Source of the DNA: Bacteroidota bacterium
GTDB taxonomy: Bacteria; Bacteroidota; Bacteroidia; Bacteroidales; B39-G9
Assembly: GCA_015222055.1 (NCBI GenBank)
Contig: JADFUR010000045.1
Location: 6,860-70,859 of the forward strand
DNA length: 64,000 nt
Direction of reading: 5' to 3'
The number at the start of each line of letters is the position of its first letter. Position 1 is the stretch's first letter. Both the position numbers and the translations under genes were made by a program. Positions 2,718-55,658 of the stretch are shown in pieces. The notes below the pieces were generated by a model, which was given only the letters and a program-made list of their open reading frames with translations, was not told where the DNA came from and did not search any database.

Positions 2718-3872
2718 ATGCAAAAAATAAGCCAATCATTATTTTTTTTATCCCTGTTGCTAATAATATCTTTACATTTTGCATCAGCTCAAAGCTATAA
2801 CTCTATATTTTTATCGGAAACACAAATAAATGCGGCAGATAGCAATAACGTTTTCTTTAATTTTAACAATACAAACTTTATTAAAAACAATGAGTATTTT
2901 AATAAAATTATTGAAGGATATACATATATCGGATTGTTTGCACAACCAAAGCTCACTTATTTCCCAAGTAAAAACATAAAAATTGAAGGAGGTGTTCATC
3001 TGCTAAAATATTCAGGACTTGATAAATTTACTCAAACAAAACCAATATTCACTTTTCAATATCAACATAAAGATTTTAGTTTAATACTTGGAACAATTTA
3101 CGGTACACTAAACCACAATTTACCCGAACCGGTTTTTTCGTTTGAACATTATTATACAAACAATGTCGAAAACGGAATGCAAATTTTATTAAACAAAACT
3201 TATCTTAAATCAGACACTTGGATTAATTGGGAACAATTTATTCTCCCCAACGACACATTGCCCGAGAGATTAACTTTTGGTTCGTCAAACTTATTTTATT
3301 TATCAGACACATCAAACAGCTTAATACTAACAATCCCCTTACAGTTTTTGATTAATCACCGTGGCGGACAATCATCAAACATAAATTCGAATATTCAAAC
3401 TCTTGCAAACACAGATATTGGACTAAATGTTAAATATAAAATTCAGTCGAAAGCAATAAAATCGATTGAATTTAACAATTATTATTTTTCATTTTTCAAC
3501 AATTCTAATATTATTGAAACATATTTTGACAAGGGCTCTGCTACTTATTCTCAATTAATAATTAATGCCAATAAATTTATTTATTCTGTAGGATACTGGA
3601 ACGCACACAATTTTATGTCTGTTTTTGGAGACCCTATGTTTCAATTAGTTTCACAAAAAAACATATTAGACACAAAGCCTGACAAACAACTCTTAACATC
3701 AAATTTATTTTATAGTGCACCATTGTGTAAGGGTGTTAATTTTGGTTTTAGAACAGAATTATATTATGACTTAGCTGCCGAAAAATTCGACTATTCTATG
3801 GGATTGAATATAGTAGTAAATCAAAAATTTTTCTTGAAAAAAATTAAAACTTATCAAGCTGCAAAATATTAA
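2718..3872 (+). CDS. Hypothetical secreted protein, possibly an outer-membrane beta-barrel
   Basis: ORF 2685-3872. The ATG at 2718 gives signal peptide MQKISQSLFFLSLLLIISLHFASAQ. Composition is rich in alternating aromatic/polar residues. No family recognised. Confidence 0.5.
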   Translation: MQKISQSLFFLSLLLIISLHFASAQSYNSIFLSETQINAADSNNVFFNFNNTNFIKNNEYFNKIIEGYTYIGLFAQPKLTYFPSKNIKIEGGVHLLKYSGLDKFTQTKPIFTFQYQHKDFSLILGTIYGTLNHNLPEPVFSFEHYYTNNVENGMQILLNKTYLKSDTWINWEQFILPNDTLPERLTFGSSNLFYLSDTSNSLILTIPLQFLINHRGGQSSNINSNIQTLANTDIGLNVKYKIQSKAIKSIEFNNYYFSFFNNSNIIETYFDKGSATYSQLIINANKFIYSVGYWNAHNFMSVFGDPMFQLVSQKNILDTKPDKQLLTSNLFYSAPLCKGVNFGFRTELYYDLAAEKFDYSMGLNIVVNQKFFLKKIKTYQAAKY

Positions 3873-3896
3873 TCTGCAAAAAGCTTTGTTAAAACA

Positions 3897-3956
3897 TTTT
3901 AAAAAAAAAACCACAATCCCAACTTACACTTTTTTTGTTTTTTTTTGCTAACTTTG
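3897..3956 (+). repeat. Promoter-bearing repeat, copy R1
   Basis: AAAAAACCACAATCCCAACTTACAC-T7-G-T9-GCTAACTTTGG is identical over more than 50 bp to 7127-7179. Related copies lie at 8069-8146, 12428-12531 and 15493-15598. Confidence 0.8.
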
Positions 3957-4019
3957 GGTTTCGCTATTTAGATATAGTGGAAATATAAGGCACTAGTGTG
4001 TTATATTTAATCGTTAGGC
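3946..4019 (+). repeat. Short attC-like or junction element: TGCTAAC..(hairpin)..GTTAGGC
   Basis: TGCTAAC at 3946-3952 and canonical core-site-like GTTAGGC at 4013-4019. Imperfect internal hairpin at 3985-4006. Confidence 0.4.
3949..3956 (+). promoter_or_regulatory. Bacteroidetes-type -7 box TAACTTTG (TAnnTTTG) inside R1, reading into the ABC operon
   Basis: Exact match to the TAnnTTTG -7 consensus. The same box sits at the 3' end of all five R copies, always oriented toward the next plus-strand gene. Confidence 0.55.
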
Positions 4020-4057
4020 AAAATTGCAAAGAAACCTTATGCTATAGAAAAACAAAT

Positions 4058-4807
4058 ATGATTGAGATAATAGATTTAAATAAAATATTTGGGAAAAATA
4101 AAGTTCTTGATAATATCAATCTAAAGATAGAACAAGGAGCCGTATATTCTCTGCTTGGAAAAAATGGTGTTGGTAAAACAACATTGATTAATATTTTGGT
4201 TGATTTGATAAAACCTGATAGCGGTAAAATCCTAATAAATGGAAAAGAGCACAATGCTCTTAGTAAATTGGATAAAATGAATATTGGAGTTGTTGGAGAA
4301 GACCTAGCCTTGATTGAAGAACTTAATGGATATGAGTTTTTAAGTTTTGTTGGAAGAATTTACCAATTGCCAAAAAACACTTTAAATAAAAGGATTGATG
4401 ATCTTTTTAACTATTTTTTTGAAGATGAAAGAGATTTGAAAAAAAATATTTCAAAGTACTCTACAGGTATGAAGAAGAAGATCGCTTTTTGTGCTGCTGT
4501 TCTTCATACTCCCGATATTTTAATACTTGACGAGCCTTTTTCGGGACTTGACCCATTCGTTGCAAATCAAATGATATCATTTTTAAAAGTTTACAAAAAA
4601 AAGGATAGAACTATTTTTATATCCTCGCACGATTTAAGTTATGTTGAAAAAATAGCCTCCCATATCTGTGTTTTAAATGATACCCAAATACAATTTAATT
4701 CAACTCTACAAAATTTCACGAATAATGGGGAGAATTCTCTAGATAAGTCTTTACTAAAGATTTTAAAACCTAACGAATCAGAATTAACTAAAATTGATTG
4801 GGTATGA
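4058..4807 (+). CDS. ABC transporter ATP-binding protein
   Basis: Walker A GKNGVGKTT, signature YSTGMKKK, Walker B ILILDEPFSGLD. Start moved to MIEIIDLNKIFG. Stop overlaps the next gene. Confidence 0.9.
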   Translation: MIEIIDLNKIFGKNKVLDNINLKIEQGAVYSLLGKNGVGKTTLINILVDLIKPDSGKILINGKEHNALSKLDKMNIGVVGEDLALIEELNGYEFLSFVGRIYQLPKNTLNKRIDDLFNYFFEDERDLKKNISKYSTGMKKKIAFCAAVLHTPDILILDEPFSGLDPFVANQMISFLKVYKKKDRTIFISSHDLSYVEKIASHICVLNDTQIQFNSTLQNFTNNGENSLDKSLLKILKPNESELTKIDWV

Positions 4808-6135
4808 TAATATTTCTAATTTTAAATAAATTCAAATCTTATTTGAAAACCCTTAAAAATCCTTGGAAAATAGTTTTAACAATTTTTTTAACCTCGACCG
4901 CCTGGATGTATGGTCGTTTATTCGGTGAATTATCGAATAAATTAGGAAGAGGAGAAATTGACTTTATAACAACAGAGGAATTTACAAGTTTAACCTTAAT
5001 TGCGATTTTGACAATTACTTTTGTTAGAGTGATATTCCCAAATTATAAACCATTAAAAATAATATTCCCTAAGTATTATCCATTATCAAAGATGCAAGTG
5101 TATTTAACATCAATTGTTAATGATCTTATTACACCTTATTTTTTCTATTTATCTATTTTTATTTTCACAGGTGGCTTTTATATATTCGATAAGGGTATCG
5201 CTTTTATCTTTGGTGGTTTCATTGTTTTACTAGGGGGACATCTGCTCAGACGAAGTATTCAATATTTAATAGAGTTTAAATTGAAAGCATTTGCTCAAAT
5301 TAGTTTTATGCTTGTTGCAATCATAGTATCGACAACAGCATTTTATTTCTCAGATTCTTCACCTTTCAATAGATCGTATTTCCTTTTATTTGCGTCATTA
5401 TTATTATTCCTGCTTGGATATATTCAAAATATAGCTGTAATTGAAAGTAGGAATAATGAGATGTCTGGATATTCAAATAAGAGTAGTATAGGTCTAAAGT
5501 TACTTTTAAACAATAAAAAAGTAAGACTACCTTTGATTATTGGATTACTTTTTAAAACATTCATTTTAATAGGAGACTTAATTCTTTTTAATACCAAAGG
5601 AGATCATTTATTTGATGGTCAAATCGTATTTTGGTTATTAGCATCTCCTTTAATAATCTACACATATGTTTTTAATAATATATGGGGCTTCTGGAAAAAT
5701 ATTTGGTTAAACATGGAGCTTCGTGTTGGCGATTATAAACCTATGATTAAACAAGGTTTTCGTTTAATGATTCTGCCGCTAGTTGTAGATGCGGTCATTA
5801 CAATACCAATTTTGATGTTATCATGGAATGCCTTTGAGTTTATTTCATTGTTTTATACTACAACAGCATTTTATTTAATAATGTTATCATTTATTTGGTC
5901 ATTAATTACTCCTAGAAATATTAGTTCCACCTTTCAGATGAAAGGGAGTACTTCACCTATTAGCCTTGTAGTCGCTATGGGTGGTGTATTATTAATGACG
6001 ACAATTAAGTTGAATACTTGGTTTTACATATTAATTCCAGCATATATTGTAATAGGAGGTGTTGCATACTGGCTAAGTATTGAAATTTATAAAGATAAAA
6101 AATATGTAATTTCCAATAAAGTAATGAAGGAATAA
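4798..6135 (+). CDS. Polytopic membrane protein, putative permease partner of the ABC ATPase
   Basis: 445 aa with about 10 or more hydrophobic segments. A 10-nt overlap with the upstream ATPase suggests translational coupling. Confidence 0.7.
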   Translation: MGMIIFLILNKFKSYLKTLKNPWKIVLTIFLTSTAWMYGRLFGELSNKLGRGEIDFITTEEFTSLTLIAILTITFVRVIFPNYKPLKIIFPKYYPLSKMQVYLTSIVNDLITPYFFYLSIFIFTGGFYIFDKGIAFIFGGFIVLLGGHLLRRSIQYLIEFKLKAFAQISFMLVAIIVSTTAFYFSDSSPFNRSYFLLFASLLLFLLGYIQNIAVIESRNNEMSGYSNKSSIGLKLLLNNKKVRLPLIIGLLFKTFILIGDLILFNTKGDHLFDGQIVFWLLASPLIIYTYVFNNIWGFWKNIWLNMELRVGDYKPMIKQGFRLMILPLVVDAVITIPILMLSWNAFEFISLFYTTTAFYLIMLSFIWSLITPRNISSTFQMKGSTSPISLVVAMGGVLLMTTIKLNTWFYILIPAYIVIGGVAYWLSIEIYKDKKYVISNKVMKE

Positions 6136-6141
6136 GCAACA

Positions 6142-6332
6142 TTTGCCTAACAAAAGCTAAATTTCATGCGCGCTGATAAGCAGTTCGAAAGTTTAGTACA
6201 ATTAAGAAACACCAGCAAGCCATATAAACTGGTTTGCTTAGAAATATAAACAAATTTATACGGCTTGCTTCCGTGAGTTTTGAAAGGTTTATTCTTTTAA
6301 ATCGCCCACTCAACTTAGCAAGACCGTTAGCA
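6142..6332 (+). repeat. attC-like imperfect inverted repeat (site B)
   Basis: TTTGCCTAAC(6142-6151)-AAAA-GCTAAATTT(6156-6164) ... AACTTAGC(6312-6319)-AAGACC-GTTAGCA(6326-6332). Inner stem AGCAAGCC(6214-6221)/GGCTTGCT(6262-6269). The left box is the exact reverse complement of 4013-4022. Confidence 0.6.
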
Positions 6333-6369
6333 ACAAGCAAAAAAGCACACACACACATTTGAGAAATAT

Positions 6370-6912
6370 ATGAAAAAAAATATCAAAGCTTTTATTAAAG
6401 AGATCGTTCCTATAATAGTTGGAATTTTAATTGCCATGTACATCACCAATTGGAATGAGAATAGAAAAGAAAAAAAGTACATTAATCAAATGTATTTATC
6501 AATTAATAAGGAACTAATCGAAACCAATGAAGATATCATTGACAAAATATCTATACAACAATCATTTATTGATACTCTTGATTTTTATTTAGAGGACAAT
6601 AAAATATCGTTACTTGATATAACAATTAAAGCTAACGGAATTTATATGCCTACAATAAAAATAAATTCTTGGAAAGCTATTTCAAATTCAAGAATTGAAT
6701 TAGTGGAATACGACAAAGTATCTGCTTTTGCAAATATTGAAGAGCAAAAAGAGATTTTGAAAATGAAAATTGAGAAATTGGGTAATTTCTTTTACTCAAA
6801 TACTAAAGAAACAGGAAAAGAAAAAAAAGAATTTATGAAGATAATTATGTTAGATATTATTGGGACAGAAATACCCTTACAAAAAGGGATTGAGAGAATT
6901 ATAAATGATTAA
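6370..6912 (+). CDS. Single-pass membrane protein of a multi-copy Bacteroidetes family (N-terminal ..GILIA..NWNE.RK anchor; possibly DUF6090-like)
   Basis: 180 aa with N-terminal TM IVPIIVGILIAMYITNWNENRKEKKYI. The family assignment is from memory of the motif only. Confidence 0.6.
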   Translation: MKKNIKAFIKEIVPIIVGILIAMYITNWNENRKEKKYINQMYLSINKELIETNEDIIDKISIQQSFIDTLDFYLEDNKISLLDITIKANGIYMPTIKINSWKAISNSRIELVEYDKVSAFANIEEQKEILKMKIEKLGNFFYSNTKETGKEKKEFMKIIMLDIIGTEIPLQKGIERIIND

Positions 6913-6916
6913 TGCC

Positions 6917-7050
6917 TGTTGCTAACACACGCTAAATTTAATTGCCGTTTTTTGTTCTGAATACAAACTGTTTAGCCTGCAACAACGGCGGTGTGGTTCG
7001 ACAGGAAATCAACCCGAAATCGGCAACAAAACTTAGCACAGTCGTTGAGC
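6917..7050 (+). repeat. attC-like imperfect inverted repeat (site C)
   Basis: TGTTGCTAAC(6917-6926)-ACAC-GCTAAATTTAATTGCCG(6931-6947) ... CGGCAACAAAACTTAGC(7021-7037)-ACAGTC-GTTGAGC(7044-7050). The left box is the exact reverse complement of 6326-6335. Confidence 0.6.
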
Positions 7051-7100
7051 AAAACCAAAGGTAGCGGTTTGTTTTTTATAATGCATTTGGACTAAACTCA

Positions 7101-7178
7101 ATTTTTCAATCTTAAACCCGACTTTTAAAAAACCACAATCCCAACTTACACTTTTTTTGTTTTTTTTTGCTAACTTTG
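7101..7178 (+). repeat. Promoter-bearing repeat, copy R2 (-7 box TAACTTTG at 7171-7178)
   Basis: More than 50 bp identical to R1. The upstream part ATTTTTCAATCTTAAACC is shared with R3. Confidence 0.8.
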
Positions 7179-7232
7179 GATTTATCAATTAAATCTCAAC
7201 AATAAATAAAAATTGAACTAAAATTAAAACTA

Positions 7233-7988
7233 ATGAATATAAATTTAGCAGTACTAATTGATGGCGATAATATACCATCCGCTTTTGTGAAAGAAATGAT
7301 GGAAGAAATAGCTAAATATGGAAATCCAACTATAAAAAGAATTTATGGAGATTGGACAAAACCCAATTTATCTAAATGGAAAAATGTACTTTTAGAAAAT
7401 GCCATTACTCCAATTCAACAATATGGATATACAACAGGCAAGAACGCTACAGATTCTGCAATGATAATTGATGCTATGGATATTTTATATTCAGAAAAAG
7501 TGAATGGGTTTTGCATAGTATCAAGTGACAGTGATTTTACCCGGTTAGCAACTCGCTTAAGAGAGGCTGGCATGCAGGTGATTGGGATTGGAGAAAAAAA
7601 GACACCAAATCCATTTATTGTGGCGTGTGACAAATTCATCTACATTGAAATTCTGAAAAATAAAACAAAAGAAAAAGCTTCTGAGGATGAGAAGGAATTG
7701 GAAAAAGAAACATTTGATAAAATTAGTTCGAAAGATATTAAATTAATTGCAACTACAATTACAGATTTATCTGATGATGAAGGATGGGCTTTTTTAGGAG
7801 ATGTTGGAAGCTTGTTGCAAAAAAAACGACCTAATTTTGATCCTCGAAACTATGGTTTCCAAAAGTTGACTCCTTTGATTAAGTCAATAGAAAAATTTGA
7901 AATTGAGCAAAGAGAAAGCCAAAAAGGCAGGTATAAGTTGATTTATGTTAAAAATAAAGAAAAGCACACAACACGCTCTCATAAATAA
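7233..7988 (+). CDS. NYN-domain (LabA-like) protein with C-terminal OST-HTH/LOTUS domain
   Basis: N-terminus LAVLIDGDN..YGDW..GKNATDSAMIIDAMD..FCIVSSDSDFTRLATRLREAG matches the NYN fold pattern. C-terminus GWAFLGDVGSLLQKKRPNFDPRNYGFQKLTPLI is LOTUS-like. Confidence 0.8.
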   Translation: MNINLAVLIDGDNIPSAFVKEMMEEIAKYGNPTIKRIYGDWTKPNLSKWKNVLLENAITPIQQYGYTTGKNATDSAMIIDAMDILYSEKVNGFCIVSSDSDFTRLATRLREAGMQVIGIGEKKTPNPFIVACDKFIYIEILKNKTKEKASEDEKELEKETFDKISSKDIKLIATTITDLSDDEGWAFLGDVGSLLQKKRPNFDPRNYGFQKLTPLIKSIEKFEIEQRESQKGRYKLIYVKNKEKHTTRSHK

Positions 7989-8068: not shown

Positions 8069-8146
8069 ATTTTTCAATCTTAAACCAACTTTTTAAAAAA
8101 ATCATAATCCCAATTTATCCCTTTTTGTATTTTTTTGTTAACTTTG
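8069..8146 (+). repeat. Promoter-bearing repeat, copy R3 (-7 box TAACTTTG at 8139-8146)
   Basis: ATTTTTCAATCTTAAACCAACTTTTTAAAAAAATCATAATCCCAATTTATCC..TTGTTAACTTTG aligns with R2 and R5. Confidence 0.75.
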
Positions 8147-8241
8147 ATTCTCGACTATAAAAGACATAGAAGATATAAAACTCATTGGAAGTGATTATTA
8201 AATTGTTACCAACAAATTTAATAAATAAATACTCCACAACT

Positions 8242-12263: not shown

Positions 12264-12427
12264 TGTTGATAGAATAAGCAAATTGAAATAAAGCATTGTG
12301 CGAGAAACTGGTAAATTTAATTTGCGATATTGAAAAAAATGGCTCATGAGATTAATTTCTTTTGGGCCATTTTTAATAATAATTGTTAATGCGTTTTTGT
12401 TTTTACTTCCTCAGTTTATCGTAGTCT

Positions 12428-12531
12428 CTGATTACAACATCAACTTGCACAAACGTATTGTATACTTTTTTAATGTTTTAAAAAAAAACACTCCCAAATT
12501 TATTTCTTTAATTCTTTTTCTGCTAACTTTG
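12428..12531 (+). repeat. Promoter-bearing repeat, copy R4 (-7 box TAACTTTG at 12524-12531)
   Basis: CTGATTACAACATCAACTTGCACAAACG..CTGCTAACTTTG aligns over about 170 bp (including the leader) with 15493-15652. Confidence 0.75.
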
Positions 12532-12558
12532 GTATTGATTATTAAATATATAAAGGAT

Positions 12559-12580
12559 ATAAGACACAAGTGTGTCTTAT
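12559..12580 (+). promoter_or_regulatory. Leader hairpin ATAAGACAC-AAGT-GTGTCTTAT downstream of the R4 promoter
   Basis: Perfect 9-bp stem. Homologous but weaker hairpins lie at 3985-4006 (R1) and 15624-15634 (R5). Confidence 0.45.
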
Positions 12581-12658
12581 TTGGTTGTTTAGCGGTAAGC
12601 TTTAAAAAGACGCAACCTTTACAACAATAAATGCATCTAAAAGAGAAAAAGACTAATC

Positions 12659-15301: not shown

Positions 15302-15492
15302 ATAAAATGATTTTAGAGTATATTTTTTTAAATATTATTTTAGCAAGTTACTAAAAAGGCAAAGAAAAGGTAAATATCAATGTGGTTTTTTTCTGTAAAT
15401 TCAGAGATGGCACAAGCGGAACGCTTGCACCAAAAAAAAGATTGACTTGATGAAATGGACAAAAAACAAAAGGCTCCCACTTGTCAGAGTAT

Positions 15493-15598
15493 CTGACTAC
15501 AACCTCATCTTGCACAAACACATTGTCTGTTTTTTTAATATTTAAACCAACTTTAAAAAAAATCACAATCCCAATTTATACTTTTTTTGCTAACTTTG
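15493..15598 (+). repeat. Promoter-bearing repeat, copy R5 (-7 box TAACTTTG at 15591-15598)
   Basis: CTGACTACAACCTCATCTTGCACAAACAC..TTTAAACCAACTTTAAAAAAAATCACAATCCCAATTTATAC..TGCTAACTTTG aligns with R3 and R4. Confidence 0.75.
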
Positions 15599-15672
15599 AT
15601 TTTGACTATTAAACACATAAAATACACAGTGTGTCTTATGTAGGTATTGGTAACCAAATAAAAAAAAAGATT

Positions 15673-45000: not shown

Positions 45001-45125
45001 TAATTCCACAGGGAGAAAATTTCTTTGCTATAATTAAAAAATCACTCCCGGCGGGTTTCTCGTTTATTATCAACACCAACGATTAAAATCGGGGGCTATT
45101 CATATTTTTTCCTTTCAGGAAAATT
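45001..45125. repeat. About 125-bp multi-hairpin intergenic repeat, copy E2
   Basis: Aligns with 2396-2520 and shares the 3' block GGGCTATTCATATTTTTTCCTTTCAGGAA. Confidence 0.7.
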
Positions 45126-53442: not shown

Positions 53443-54660
53443 ATGAATAAAACAAAAACCACATTAATTGATTTAATCTTATATAGTTTGCTTTTAACTG
53501 CAACTCCTTTTATTATGTTGCAAAACTATCTGCAATTGTCAATTGCATATTTTTCGAGATTAAGTTTTTCAATCAATAATTTTAGTGTCCCTTATATTTT
53601 GGTAATTGCTTTTGCTTTATTAATTTTTGTGTTTCTCAAATTTCGAAAAACATTAAATAAAAAAACTTTTTACACTCTCCTATTCGTTATTTTTTTAATC
53701 TTTATTGGACATAGTGTTTCCGATTTTTATTTAAACATGAAATTTTACGACCTGCAACAAAATTGGCATTATATTGCTTATAGCATTTTTTCTTTTTTGA
53801 TGTATCGGTATTGTAAAACAAAAAACATTTCTCCAAATAAAATCATTTTAAAAACATTGCTTATTGCTGTCTCATTATCAACTTTCGATGAGGTTTTTCA
53901 ATTATTTCTTTCATCGCGAACCTTTGATATTTCAGATATTGCTAAAGATTTTTGGGGTGCGATAATCGGTGTGATTTTTGTGTTTTTTATTATCGAAAAA
54001 AACATTGTTTTAAAAACAAATTCACAAATTCAACACAAAAAATTCAACGATTATATTAAAAATCCTTTCTCTGTTATTTTTTATTCATTAATACTATCGT
54101 TTTTCTTTCTTATCATATCGCCATTACTGACCGACATAAAATATTGCATTATTACCATTCTAATAACTCTTTTTCTCTTTAGCATTATTTTTTTCGCAAT
54201 TCATTATTTTCAATATAAAACATTCAGGCGTTTCTTTACAATTTTTTTCATAATTGCGGTAATAAGTCAAATAGCCTTTATTCTAAAATATAAAAACAAA
54301 AATATTGTTTATAATGCAAATGGTATAACTGTTTATAAAGGACTTGTTATTCCTTATTTTGATGTTTTAATAAAACCTTCGGGCTGCTATCGATTGGTTG
54401 ACAAAAAACAAATATTTACTCAAACAGATATTTCCACTATTCTTAAATATTCACCCGATATTATTTTAATTGGAAGAGGCATACACGGAAGAGGCGGTGA
54501 AGGCTTTCCTGCTCCTTACGAAGTGCAATTTTTATTCAACTCAAAATTAAAAAGCATGGTTCAGGTCATTAATCTGAAAAATGAACAAGCTTGTGCTGAA
54601 TATAATAAGCTGAAAGCCGAAGGAAAAAATGTTGTTTTTATAATTCATAATACTGACTAA
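53443..54660 (+). CDS. VanZ-like membrane domain fused to a C-terminal Mth938-like (DUF498) domain
   Basis: FDEVFQLFLSSRTFDISDIAKDFWGAIIGV (VanZ motif). C-terminus ..SPDIILIGRG..VQVINLKNEQACAEYNKLKAEGKNVVFIIH resembles Mth938/NDUFAF3-type domains. Confidence 0.6.
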   Translation: MNKTKTTLIDLILYSLLLTATPFIMLQNYLQLSIAYFSRLSFSINNFSVPYILVIAFALLIFVFLKFRKTLNKKTFYTLLFVIFLIFIGHSVSDFYLNMKFYDLQQNWHYIAYSIFSFLMYRYCKTKNISPNKIILKTLLIAVSLSTFDEVFQLFLSSRTFDISDIAKDFWGAIIGVIFVFFIIEKNIVLKTNSQIQHKKFNDYIKNPFSVIFYSLILSFFFLIISPLLTDIKYCIITILITLFLFSIIFFAIHYFQYKTFRRFFTIFFIIAVISQIAFILKYKNKNIVYNANGITVYKGLVIPYFDVLIKPSGCYRLVDKKQIFTQTDISTILKYSPDIILIGRGIHGRGGEGFPAPYEVQFLFNSKLKSMVQVINLKNEQACAEYNKLKAEGKNVVFIIHNTD

Positions 54661-54699
54661 AAAATGGAGTTTGTGTAATTTTAATGTGGGTGAAGTAAC

Positions 54700-54790
54700 G
54701 GGGAAAGGCTAAAGGGGAAAGGCTAAAGGCTAAAGGCTAAAGGGGAAAGGGGAAAGGCTAAGGTTAAAAGGGGAAAGAGGAAAGTTAAAA
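54700..54790 (+). repeat. Tandem array of 13 heptamers (GGGGAAA / GGCTAAA and variants)
   Basis: Reads GGGGAAA GGCTAAA GGGGAAA GGCTAAA GGCTAAA GGCTAAA GGGGAAA GGGGAAA GGCTAAG GTTAAAA GGGGAAA GAGGAAA GTTAAAA. Ends 10 nt before the ATG at 54801. Confidence 0.9.
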
Positions 54791-54800
54791 AAAAGAAAAG

Positions 54801-55658
54801 ATGCAAAAAAACAAAAAAAATATTTTCACATACATCATTGTTGGATTTTGGATATTGCTTATTTTTTTTGGGGTAATAGCAAAAACCAATCCCGAACTTG
54901 TTTCTAAAATACCTAGGCAAAAACAAAACCAGATAAGTGAAACAATCACAATAGCCGATATCGATATTTTAAACAAAAAATATGACGATGCTACAAAAAA
55001 ATATATGGGCATTTTAAAAACTAACCCTAATAATGTTGGAGCTTTAATAAAACTCAGCACATTATATCAAAATATTGGCTTTGCCGACAAGTCGATTAGT
55101 CTATTAAACAATAGTTTAAAAAACACAGAATTCCCATATCTCATTTATCAAGAACTTGCACATATTTACTCTGTAAATAAAAATTCAAACAAAGCAATAT
55201 ACTACTACAACAAATCTTTAGAAACAGACCCTTTTGCTATTAATACCTGTTTAGATTTATCTCAATTATATAAAGACAGTCAACAATGGGATAAGCTTAT
55301 TTCAATATTACAAAATGCAGCAAAAAAGAGAACAAACCCGGGCTATTTTTATAGCGGTGCATTAAAACAAAGCTTGTTCACATACAGAAACGATGAAGAG
55401 TTACAACATATTATTCAATTCAAAATTAACGAAAGAATTGATAAAAAAAAGCTTCGCAAATTTGATATAAATATTTTTTACGACTGTCTGAAAAACGATA
55501 AAGAGCTTGCCATAATTTTTAATAAAATTGCTTTTGGATATGCGGCGATGAATAACAATAACGAAGCAATTTCATATTTTAAAAAAGCGTTGCAAGTGTG
55601 GCCTGATTATATGGAGGCTAAGTACAATTTAGAATATTTGCAAGCACAGATAAAATAA
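54801..55658 (+). CDS. Membrane-anchored TPR-repeat protein
   Basis: N-terminal TM IIVGFWILLIFFGVI. Several TPR-like units (..AISYFKKALQVWPDYMEAKYNL). Confidence 0.75.
   Translation: MQKNKKNIFTYIIVGFWILLIFFGVIAKTNPELVSKIPRQKQNQISETITIADIDILNKKYDDATKKYMGILKTNPNNVGALIKLSTLYQNIGFADKSISLLNNSLKNTEFPYLIYQELAHIYSVNKNSNKAIYYYNKSLETDPFAINTCLDLSQLYKDSQQWDKLISILQNAAKKRTNPGYFYSGALKQSLFTYRNDEELQHIIQFKINERIDKKKLRKFDINIFYDCLKNDKELAIIFNKIAFGYAAMNNNNEAISYFKKALQVWPDYMEAKYNLEYLQAQIK

Follow-up and report, generated by a model that had tools for sequence, protein, structure and literature searches.

Integrons are the textbook gene-capture system, and both their origin and their near-absence from large phyla such as Bacteroidota are open questions. 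Here we analyzed a 64,000-nucleotide chromosomal stretch of a Bacteroidales bacterium (Bacteroidota; assembly GCA_015222055.1, contig JADFUR010000045.1, positions 6,860 to 70,859 of the forward strand), which we call the window. Between window positions 4014 and 7044 lie two adjacent gene units whose starts are complementary to a box at their own ends. A first-pass annotation, made from the sequence alone, had read them as integron-type cassettes in a cluster without an integrase. Are these units mobile cassettes, and do they belong to an integron? The answer reached below is that they are real cassettes with integron-like mechanics but probably not a classical integron: of the two features that define the latter, extrahelical bases are lacking in the sites, and no IntI integrase was found in the window or in the related loci collected.

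Two gene units with complementary ends

The window is AT-rich chromosome (29.6% G+C) and encodes ribE, pstSCAB and blaI/blaR1-like genes; protein families were assigned with Pfam and NCBIfam. Each of the two units, hereafter cassettes, closes with a site in which two outer boxes, R'' (ending in AAC) and R' (beginning with GTT), enclose two inner arms, L'' and L', from which they are separated by short spacers. The elements under study are the following:

4013-4021 (+): left junction GTTAGGCAA, the R' half-site of cassette 1, complementary to 6143-6151; homology with a syntenic relative, L046, stops here
4014-6326 (+): cassette 1, with an ABC ATPase gene (4058-4807) and a gene for a 443-aa membrane protein (4804-6135)
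6143-6334 (+): site A, a degenerate hairpin of ~190 bp, which fails the strict structural scan and the chain walk
6327-7044 (+): cassette 2, with a gene for a 180-aa predicted membrane protein (6370-6912)
6918-7052 (+): site B, an intact type-1 hairpin of 135 bp, the sole window match of the structural scan

In cassette 1, the ATPase matches Pfam ABC_tran (E 4e-28), and the 443-aa protein, taken as its permease, has no Pfam or NCBIfam match. The 180-aa protein of cassette 2 shows a weak DUF6090 match (E 0.004), under the family cut-off. Exact-protein look-ups of this product and of that of the downstream NYN/OST-HTH gene (7233-7988) matched no record.

Direct reading of positions 3600-7800 bore out the geometry described in the first-pass annotation. 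GTTAGGCAAA (4013-4022) is the reverse complement of TTTGCCTAAC (6142-6151), and GTTAGCAACA (6326-6335) is that of TGTTGCTAAC (6917-6926), over 10/10 nt in both cases. The architecture proposed for both sites, TAAC-N4-GCTAAATTT followed by AACTTAGC-N6-GTT, occurs with 0 mismatches only at 6148-6164/6312-6328 and 6923-6939/7030-7046, 0.6 kb apart; neither half-pattern has another exact copy in the window. As annotated, the ATGs at 4058 and 6370 lie 44 and 43 nt past the G|TT, and the stops at 6135 and 6912 lie 6 and 4 nt ahead of the inverted boxes. One figure had to be corrected: the length of ~190 bp given for the second site belongs to the first (6143-6334), while the second (6918-7052) measures 135 bp.

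Within 6 kb, this AT-rich window holds 13 complementary 10-nt pairs of the GTTR kind per strand. Because such pairs are frequent, raw end complementarity is weak evidence. What is far beyond chance is the fixed position of the arms relative to the hairpins, together with their recurrence in other genomes. No complementary R'' was found near the right flank (7044-7075); therefore, the array ends there.

Hairpin sites with two conserved mismatches

Site B consists of R'' GTTGCTAAC (6918-6926), the spacer ACAC, L'' GCTAAATTTAATTGCCG (6931-6947), L' CGGCAACAAAACTTAGC (7021-7037), the spacer ACAGTC and R' GTTGAGCAA (7044-7052), and carries one extra mismatch beyond the type-1 pattern described below. 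Site A has the same parts, namely R'' TTGCCTAAC (6143-6151), AAAA, L'' (6156-6172), L' (6303-6319), AAGACC and R' GTTAGCAAC (6326-6334), with a 130-nt centre containing its own 22-nt hairpin. It keeps A·C mismatches at stem positions 6 and 11; three further mismatches, worked out by hand, lie at positions 9, 10 and 14, and a chain walk along R' complements found no closing stem for it. We read site A as decayed.

By tracing R' complements downstream, we located partner sites in the loci collected from other genomes and metagenomes (about 50, numbered with the prefix L). These sites belong to several sequence types, with stems GCTAAATTTAATTGCCG / CGGCAACTAAACTTAGC in type 1, TATAAAAATAATAGCCGA / TCGGCTACTATTCTTATA in type 2 and CATATACTTTATGGCGG / CCGCCACAAAGCATATG in type 3, and further types besides. 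All types have a common geometry, in which AAC is followed by 4 nt, a stem of 14-18 bp, a loop that varies, 5-7 nt and GTT. The 5' spacer is 4 nt in every site found by a scan that permitted 3-5, the 3' spacer is mostly 6-7 nt and 5 nt once, and the loops (~50-250 nt) vary in sequence; the central spacer between R and L is unpaired, as it must be in an attC site. The stems GCTAAATTTAATTG, TATAAAAATAATAG, CATATACTTTATGG, GGTATAGCCAATAA and others are unrelated in sequence, and in all of them an A of the 5' arm is opposed by a C of the 3' arm (A·C) at positions 6 and 11 from the outer end. The two ends of each of the 32 distinct sites are AAC and GTT; for this set, the fourth base of the R box was also tallied. 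The full integron consensus RYYYAAC/GTTRRRY, tested in the window sites only, is matched there by GCCTAAC/GTTAGGC and TGCTAAC/GTTAGCA.

A structural scan of the window and the collected loci that asked only for the geometry with the 6/11 mismatches picked out site B alone in the window, and over 40 sites in the loci, with the 5'-arm consensus nnTAWAnnnnATnn. In a control scan, in which no particular mismatch was required, 52 distinct stems were obtained, compared with ~21 in shuffles (three were made). Mismatches in the control scan concentrated at position 6 (21 stems) and position 11 (23 stems) and were overwhelmingly A·C. The exact 6+11 pair occurred in 11 stems and was not among the commonest mismatch patterns listed for the three shuffles.

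By definition, the folded bottom strand of an attC site has two extrahelical bases, typically G and T, left unpaired in its stem (PMC7439510). The stems found here contain no such bulges; in their place, at least 11 unrelated stem sequences carry the two mismatches, which are A·C on the top strand and G·T on the bottom strand. Since they are G·T there, the bottom strand folds better (consensus fold -23.0 kcal/mol, against -14.6 for the top strand), and we infer that the bottom strand is the reactive form. Such mismatches can form only where a single strand folds back or in a cruciform; that they are conserved in stems of unrelated sequence therefore indicates that the folded form of the site is the one recognised.

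Recurrence of the sites and of the cassette rule

One genome per species (GTDB) was scanned with the pattern TAAC-N4-GCTAAATTT-(60-120 nt)-AACTTAGC-N6-GTT. By a hand estimate, ~0.3 chance matches were expected; six loci were found, all of them in Bacteroidota: Maribacter aquimaris, Ancylomarina sp., a Dysgonamonadaceae metagenome-assembled genome (MAG) with two loci, a Lentimicrobiaceae MAG and an unclassified Bacteroidetes MAG. A scan of metagenomes added 14, which brings the other loci to about 20. In most of them the whole ~124-nt element is conserved, not its ends alone, and the boxes immediately outside AAC and GTT vary from locus to locus.

For 14 of 23 type-1 elements, the complement of the R'' box was found once, upstream, as GTTNNNNNN at 0.2-4.3 kb; the loci that failed mostly have less than ~2 kb of upstream sequence. 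We then extended the count to the 32 distinct sites of all sequence types, with complements sought within 6 kb. The exact complement of R'' (9 nt ending in AAC) lay upstream, the expected side, in 20 of 32 and on the control side in 3, and the complement of R' lay downstream in 14 and upstream in 1. The annotated rule that a cassette start complements its own R'' and not that of its neighbor thus applies beyond the two perfect cases of the window. Within one site, R'' agrees with R' at only 2.2 of the 6 variable positions; therefore, each site is a hybrid, whose 5' box comes from the cassette being closed and whose 3' box comes from the next one.

Outside chromosomes and metagenomes, a BLAST search of plasmid and phage collections with site B returned no match. 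The one-sided pattern TAACNNNNGCTAAATTTAATTG gave 17 matches in viral contigs, nearly all of them coincidences in coding sequence, and only one (L010) resembled a true, shorter variant. A full-text literature search of incomplete coverage returned no account of this system. The cassette family is widespread in Bacteroidota and apparently undescribed.

Breakpoints at the GTT

Comparison of related loci showed where cassettes join. The metagenome contigs L030 and L035 share 100% identity along a 5.4-kb stretch that runs up to ...TTCTCGTT, also read as ...GCATATGCTTCTCGTT. From the next base beyond the GTT their identity drops to 29%, the random level, and each runs on into a different cassette, the closing box of which matches its own start.

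The window has a syntenic relative, L046 (Bacteroidales GCA_023145555.1), whose flanking protein is 73% identical and in which the gene order is likewise ribE, a lipid-A-deacylase-like gene, a variable part and the NYN/OST-HTH gene. In L046, the variable part is a PemI/PemK toxin-antitoxin pair with a hairpin, which replaces the ABC transporter and the membrane protein. The two loci have the right junction in common, GTTGAGCAAAACC, read as GTTGAGCAAAACCA(A/T)AGGTAGCGG, at window position 7044, and their left-flank homology spans the promoter and leader hairpin described below and ends at window position 4013. Thus, of the breakpoints that had been predicted at G|TT, the two outer ones were recovered, the left one to within a few bases; the position inside the GTT is not resolvable from these comparisons. 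The inner junction (6326) is supported by the family-wide end rule. An empty docking site was not recovered among three closer relatives of the flanking gene, whose contigs end right after that gene and probably broke at the promoter repeat during assembly.

Could the elements instead be immobile intergenic hairpins, such as terminators, repetitive extragenic palindromic (REP)-like repeats or structured RNAs, whose complementarity is coincidental? They directly follow stop codons, the type-1 sequence is conserved across orders, and complementary 10-mers are frequent in this window. A terminator is ruled out, as neither site has a T-run or a terminator call. A miniature inverted-repeat transposable element or REP is ruled out by stems that vary in sequence at fixed geometry, by cassette-specific outer boxes and by asymmetric spacers. 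Rfam reported only two tRNAs at gathering score in the window, nothing at E<=1 in 3850-7250 and two chance-level matches elsewhere, and the top strand, which has the sense of the mRNA, folds worse than the bottom one. The complementarity falls on the expected side in 20 of the 32 sites and on the control side in 3, and breakpoints lie exactly at the GTT. We regard this explanation, already contradicted by these data, as hardly credible.

A probable docking site behind a promoter-like module

The flanks of the two cassettes contain the following features:

3879-3968 (+): promoter-like module P1, with the -7 box TAACTTTG at 3949-3956
3982-4012 (+): leader hairpin AAATATAA...TTATATTT followed by AATC, the docking point just upstream of the first cassette
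7044-7075 (+): right flank of the docking site, GTTGAGCAAAACCAAAGGTAGCGGTTTG, conserved in L046
7102-7190 (+): promoter-like module P2, which precedes the NYN/OST-HTH gene (7233-7988)

We take TAACTTTG to be a predicted -7 box of the Bacteroidota type, on the basis of the motif TAnnTTTG of general promoter knowledge. A perfect 53-nt direct repeat, which the first-pass annotation had not reported, brackets the cassette segment (3905-3957 = 7127-7179); the perfect identity of the two module copies may have arisen by gene conversion. The cassettes begin 4 nt past the leader hairpin (3982-4007), which follows the first promoter, and P1 presumably transcribes these promoterless genes. Homologues of the leader hairpin, also followed by GTT, occur in other module copies, and by analogy with attI in integrons the arrangement 'hairpin - few nt - GTT' would be the entry site. 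L046 likewise has a module on each side of its variable part, at the same place, with copies ~88% alike by an estimate made by eye.

Five module copies occur in the window in all (3879-4012, 7102-7190, 8070-8210, 12420-12590 and 15491-15655), with the layout AAAAAA-CACAATCCCAA-TTTAT...TTTTTTTGCTAACTTTG. In three of the five, a leader hairpin of the ATAAGACACA/TGTGTCTTAT kind is followed 1-5 nt later by GTT. The module might be a cassette landing pad or the promoter of a shared regulon. Behind the three other copies, no convincing cassette was found, only one 8-mer coincidence (8205 vs 15647).

A recombinase linked to an IS91-family transposase

Which enzyme could move the cassettes? On a 2.7-kb metagenome contig (L036), two genes lie beside a type-1 hairpin on the strand opposite to the cassette genes, bounded by GTTGAACTA...TAGTTCAAC. 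They encode a 307-aa tyrosine recombinase and, overlapping it, an IS91-family Y2 transposase (NF033538, 396 bits; Pfam Y2_Tnp and Zn_Tnp_IS91). The recombinase falls under every curated cut-off (XerA, 194 vs 220 bits; integron integrase TIGR02249, 170 vs 265 bits). It aligns to TIGR02249 and to the IntI4 structure 2a3v in two stretches, and by eye lacks the IntI-specific segment of ~30 residues. A phylogeny of tyrosine recombinases places IS91- and IS3-associated enzymes together with IntI in an 'integron-like subgroup', within which the helical insertion is confined to IntI and the IS91-linked recombinases are the nearest relatives of IntI (bioRxiv 10.1101/542381). The lack of this insertion would go together with the lack of bulged bases in the sites.

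The L036 recombinase has more than 6000 relatives at E<=1e-20. Among its top 120 relatives, identity is 81-100%, and most sit on contigs of ~1-3 kb (2.3-2.9 kb in many cases), which is the look of a multicopy insertion sequence (IS) in assemblies. Wherever longer context existed (L042-L045, L052 and L053), the recombinase was paired with the Y2 transposase, whose gene is split or fragmentary in several copies. In the recombinase sense, aligned copies of this unit start with G|TTGAACTAAATCC..., continue through recombinase and transposase, and end in ...GGATGTAGTTCAAC-ACAG-(short hairpin AATCATCGCTGGGTCT...AGACCGCTCAGATT)-CCTRTTTA|. Like a cassette, the unit has ends that complement each other, GTTGAACTA / TAGTTCAAC, as well as its own hairpin. 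Every aligned copy is inverted and interrupts another cassette's R'' box at precisely AA|C: the split box CAGCACCT|AAC of L043 matches GTTAGGTGC, the start of the cassette closed by that box, and in L052, CCCCCT|AAC matches GTTAGGGGG. In L005, a remnant of an L036-type recombinase adjoins a type-1 site in the same layout. A homologue search with this remnant found a single 101-aa fragment (P0001), and no type-1 sites were present in the contexts of that fragment (L024-L027). Beside it, L024 (5975-9729) has a run of small unannotated open reading frames (ORFs) and a PIN_2 gene, with an array-like look.

The unit is an IS91-family IS with an extra tyrosine recombinase, formed by the recombinase and Y2_Tnp/Zn_Tnp_IS91 operon of L036, L042-L045, L052 and L053; the window itself contains none. 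To our knowledge, no link has been made between the ends or targets of such recombinase-bearing elements and attC-like hairpins or arrays of cargo cassettes. Like IS1111-attC elements and group IIC introns at attC sites, it inserts, inverted, at the fixed AA|C of R'', and group II introns occupy the sites described here too. Unlike those elements, which do not mimic a cassette, it has R''/R' ends (TAGTTCAAC / GTTGAACTA) and a hairpin.

A second Xer-like recombinase of 387-406 aa, 33% identical to the IS91-linked one, is another candidate enzyme for cassette movement:

L043 16783-18003 and L044 5979-7142 (-): YR2, which heads arrays on the cassette strand; N-terminal extension of ~115 aa; TIGR02249 186 bits, below the cut-off, matched in two stretches that leave out the IntI insertion

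We propose that the IS91-linked recombinase moves the cargo cassettes in trans, and we infer that it, rather than another enzyme, does the cutting. That its Y2 partner supplies single-stranded copies of the DNA, perhaps as circles, is an attractive guess. A different division of labor is conceivable, in which the Y2 (HUH) transposase moves the units by rolling-circle or single-strand transposition and the hairpins are its origin or terminator signals. Every full-length copy has it alongside the recombinase; the substrate of HUH enzymes is single-stranded DNA beside hairpins, and one-ended transposition by IS91/ISCR elements mobilises neighboring genes. However, stems of ~9 and 11-17 bp around a 4/6-nt spacer, with exchange at AAC/GTT inside a stem, are the plan of a two-arm tyrosine-recombinase core or an attC site, and IS91 ends with their GTTC/CTTG targets do not resemble this geometry. 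Moreover, the reciprocal replacement of cassettes at one site is an outcome of site-specific recombination. We therefore consider transposition by the Y2 enzyme quite improbable.

Array contents and relation to integrons

Longer loci revealed what the arrays carry. In L043, toxin-antitoxin cassettes follow one another (YoeB/Phd, two PemK pairs, a HigBA-like Gp49/HTH pair and ParE). In L053, positions 1-20900 hold HepT/MNT, Fic, GmrSD, an Mrr-helicase and genes of a cyclic oligonucleotide-based antiphage signalling system (CBASS) around one recombinase-IS91 unit; the CBASS operon encodes a CD-NTase with TIR-STING. Three IS110-family transposase genes and two group II intron reverse transcriptases are present as well, with an intron reverse transcriptase gene lying beside a site; L053 looks like a cassette array of the defence-island kind. 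L003 carries a 4-gene sugar-modification cassette. L005 carries a 5-gene cassette whose site holds an ORF-less group II intron (4440-5240; Rfam RF01999 97.9 bits, RF00029 65.2 bits) on the cassette-sense strand, exactly between R'' plus 4 nt and 5 nt plus R', in the place of the L stem. Array cargo and parasites resemble those of sedentary chromosomal integrons; multi-gene cassettes do not.

The likeness to integrons extends to the basic plan. Both have R''(...AAC), an unpaired spacer, L''...L', a spacer and R'(GTT...), with exchange at the GTT and a cassette start that complements its own R''. Both consist mostly of promoterless genes in the same orientation, in arrays with a promoter upstream of the first cassette, and both have toxin-antitoxin and defence cargo and are colonised by group II introns and IS110-family elements. 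They differ in the stem, which here has mismatches at 6/11 (A·C top, G·T bottom) and not bulged G/T bases, in the possible size of the cassettes (2-5 genes), and in that no IntI or intI-attI-Pc platform was found in the window or the collected loci. The linked recombinase is without the IntI insertion and is borne by a cassette, in a phylum nearly free of integrons.

These observations bear on an alternative, a remnant of a classical integron (a cluster of attC sites lacking an integrase, or CALIN), with ordinary attC sites, a true IntI elsewhere in the genome or lineage, and the IS91-linked unit as a parasite of attC sites. In its favor, the R boxes conform to RYYYAAC/GTTRRRY and the cassettes obey the end rule of integrons; as in chromosomal integrons, the arrays hold cassettes for toxin-antitoxin and defence functions together with IS110 elements and group II introns; and reviews name Bacteroidota among the phyla with occasional integrons, reported there at low frequency. 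On the other hand, the bulged bases that define attC are absent and two mismatches stand in their place. In the ~50 collected loci there was no IntI-grade protein, the best TIGR02249 scores being 170-186 bits against a cut-off of 265. IntegronFinder surveys found only In0 elements in Bacteroidetes and one complete integron in Salinibacter (PMC9024848), that is, essentially no integrons in this phylum, yet the linked recombinase family has more than 6000 relatives. We consider a classical remnant unlikely. Of the initial reading as integron-type cassettes, the mobile cassettes with foldable attC-like sites and GTT junctions stood, and membership of the integron family was not established and is probably wrong.

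CTX-type phages that use XerCD offer another parallel, since there too a Xer-like recombinase acts on a folded single-strand hairpin with mismatches in its stem. In that case, however, a single phage genome targets dif, and there are no cassette arrays and no end rule.

A model for cassette movement

Our model, which we consider likely, is that 4014-6326 and 6327-7044 are promoterless mobile cassettes with hairpin sites and exchange at the GTT, for which the IS91-linked recombinase is the best candidate acting in trans. Two cassettes would have inserted in tandem where a chromosomal docking site of fixed position follows a Bacteroidota promoter and its leader hairpin. The end of each cassette would be a recombination site acting as a folded single-strand hairpin: 9 bp of outer R stem (NNNNNNAAC with GTTNNNNNN), then 4/6 nt of unpaired spacer, then an inner L stem of ~17 bp bearing the two conserved mismatches (6, 11), and a variable loop. 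Strand exchange would occur at the GTT, leaving the GTT-proximal half of the cassette's own R stem at the cassette start; because exchange there splits the R stem, the first 9-10 nt complement the box before the cassette's own hairpin. The enzyme, supplied in trans, would best be sought in the Xer/IntI-related recombinase that is paired with the IS91-family Y2 (HUH) transposase in a cassette-like unit.

Several observations weigh against this model. All six-frame ORFs of at least 60 aa in the window were searched with phmmer, using as queries a reconstructed IntI1 sequence, the IS91-linked recombinase, YR2 and the IS91 transposase, and no tyrosine recombinase or IS91 transposase was matched at E<=10, in agreement with the annotated absence of an integrase. 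As the recombinase-IS91 unit is absent from the window, its cassettes would be non-autonomous. The hairpin of the unit itself is without the position 6/11 mismatch pattern, and by analogy with IS1111-attC elements and group IIC introns the unit could equally be only a parasite that targets the sites. Taken alone, the single-strand fold energies of the window sites are not significant (z = -0.5 to -2.0 vs shuffles); the comparative fold alone carries information. The left breakpoint against L046 is resolved only to a few AT-rich bases, and the L046 cassette site, with a perfect stem, has non-canonical spacing and an end complementarity of 7 of 9. With site A degenerate as well, both chromosomal arrays may be old and no longer mobile.

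What does the system mean for integrons? Arrays in Bacteroidota obey integron logic: their sites are hairpins, strands are exchanged at the GTT, cassettes turn over at one fixed position close to a promoter, and the cargo includes toxin-antitoxin and anti-phage genes. If the IS91-linked recombinase does the work, the origin of integrons from a mobile recombinase/HUH element would become directly testable, a large pool of cassettes in Bacteroidota of gut, sea and sediment would be escaping standard integron finders, and a second structure-specific recombination system, one that reads mismatches instead of bulges, would be available for engineering. Going further, and only tentatively, we suggest that this may be a Bacteroidota gene-cassette system independent of integrons, in which an IntI-sister recombinase without the insertion reads hairpin mismatches rather than bulges and rides with an IS91 transposase in its own cassette; it would then be a living relative, possibly a precursor, of integrons, whose 'integrase' is still a mobile element and not a fixed platform.

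Other repeats in the window

Two further repeats were seen outside the cassette segment. Between the ORFs 53443-54660 and 54801-55658, a 14-nt unit (AAAGGGGAAAGGCT-like) is repeated in tandem in ~5-7 copies (54683-54784). A 91-nt direct repeat, 78% identical, occurs at 2428-2518 and 45032-45122, 42.6 kb apart and intergenic in both places, and contains a hairpin (CCCACG...CGTGGG) followed by a T-rich run.

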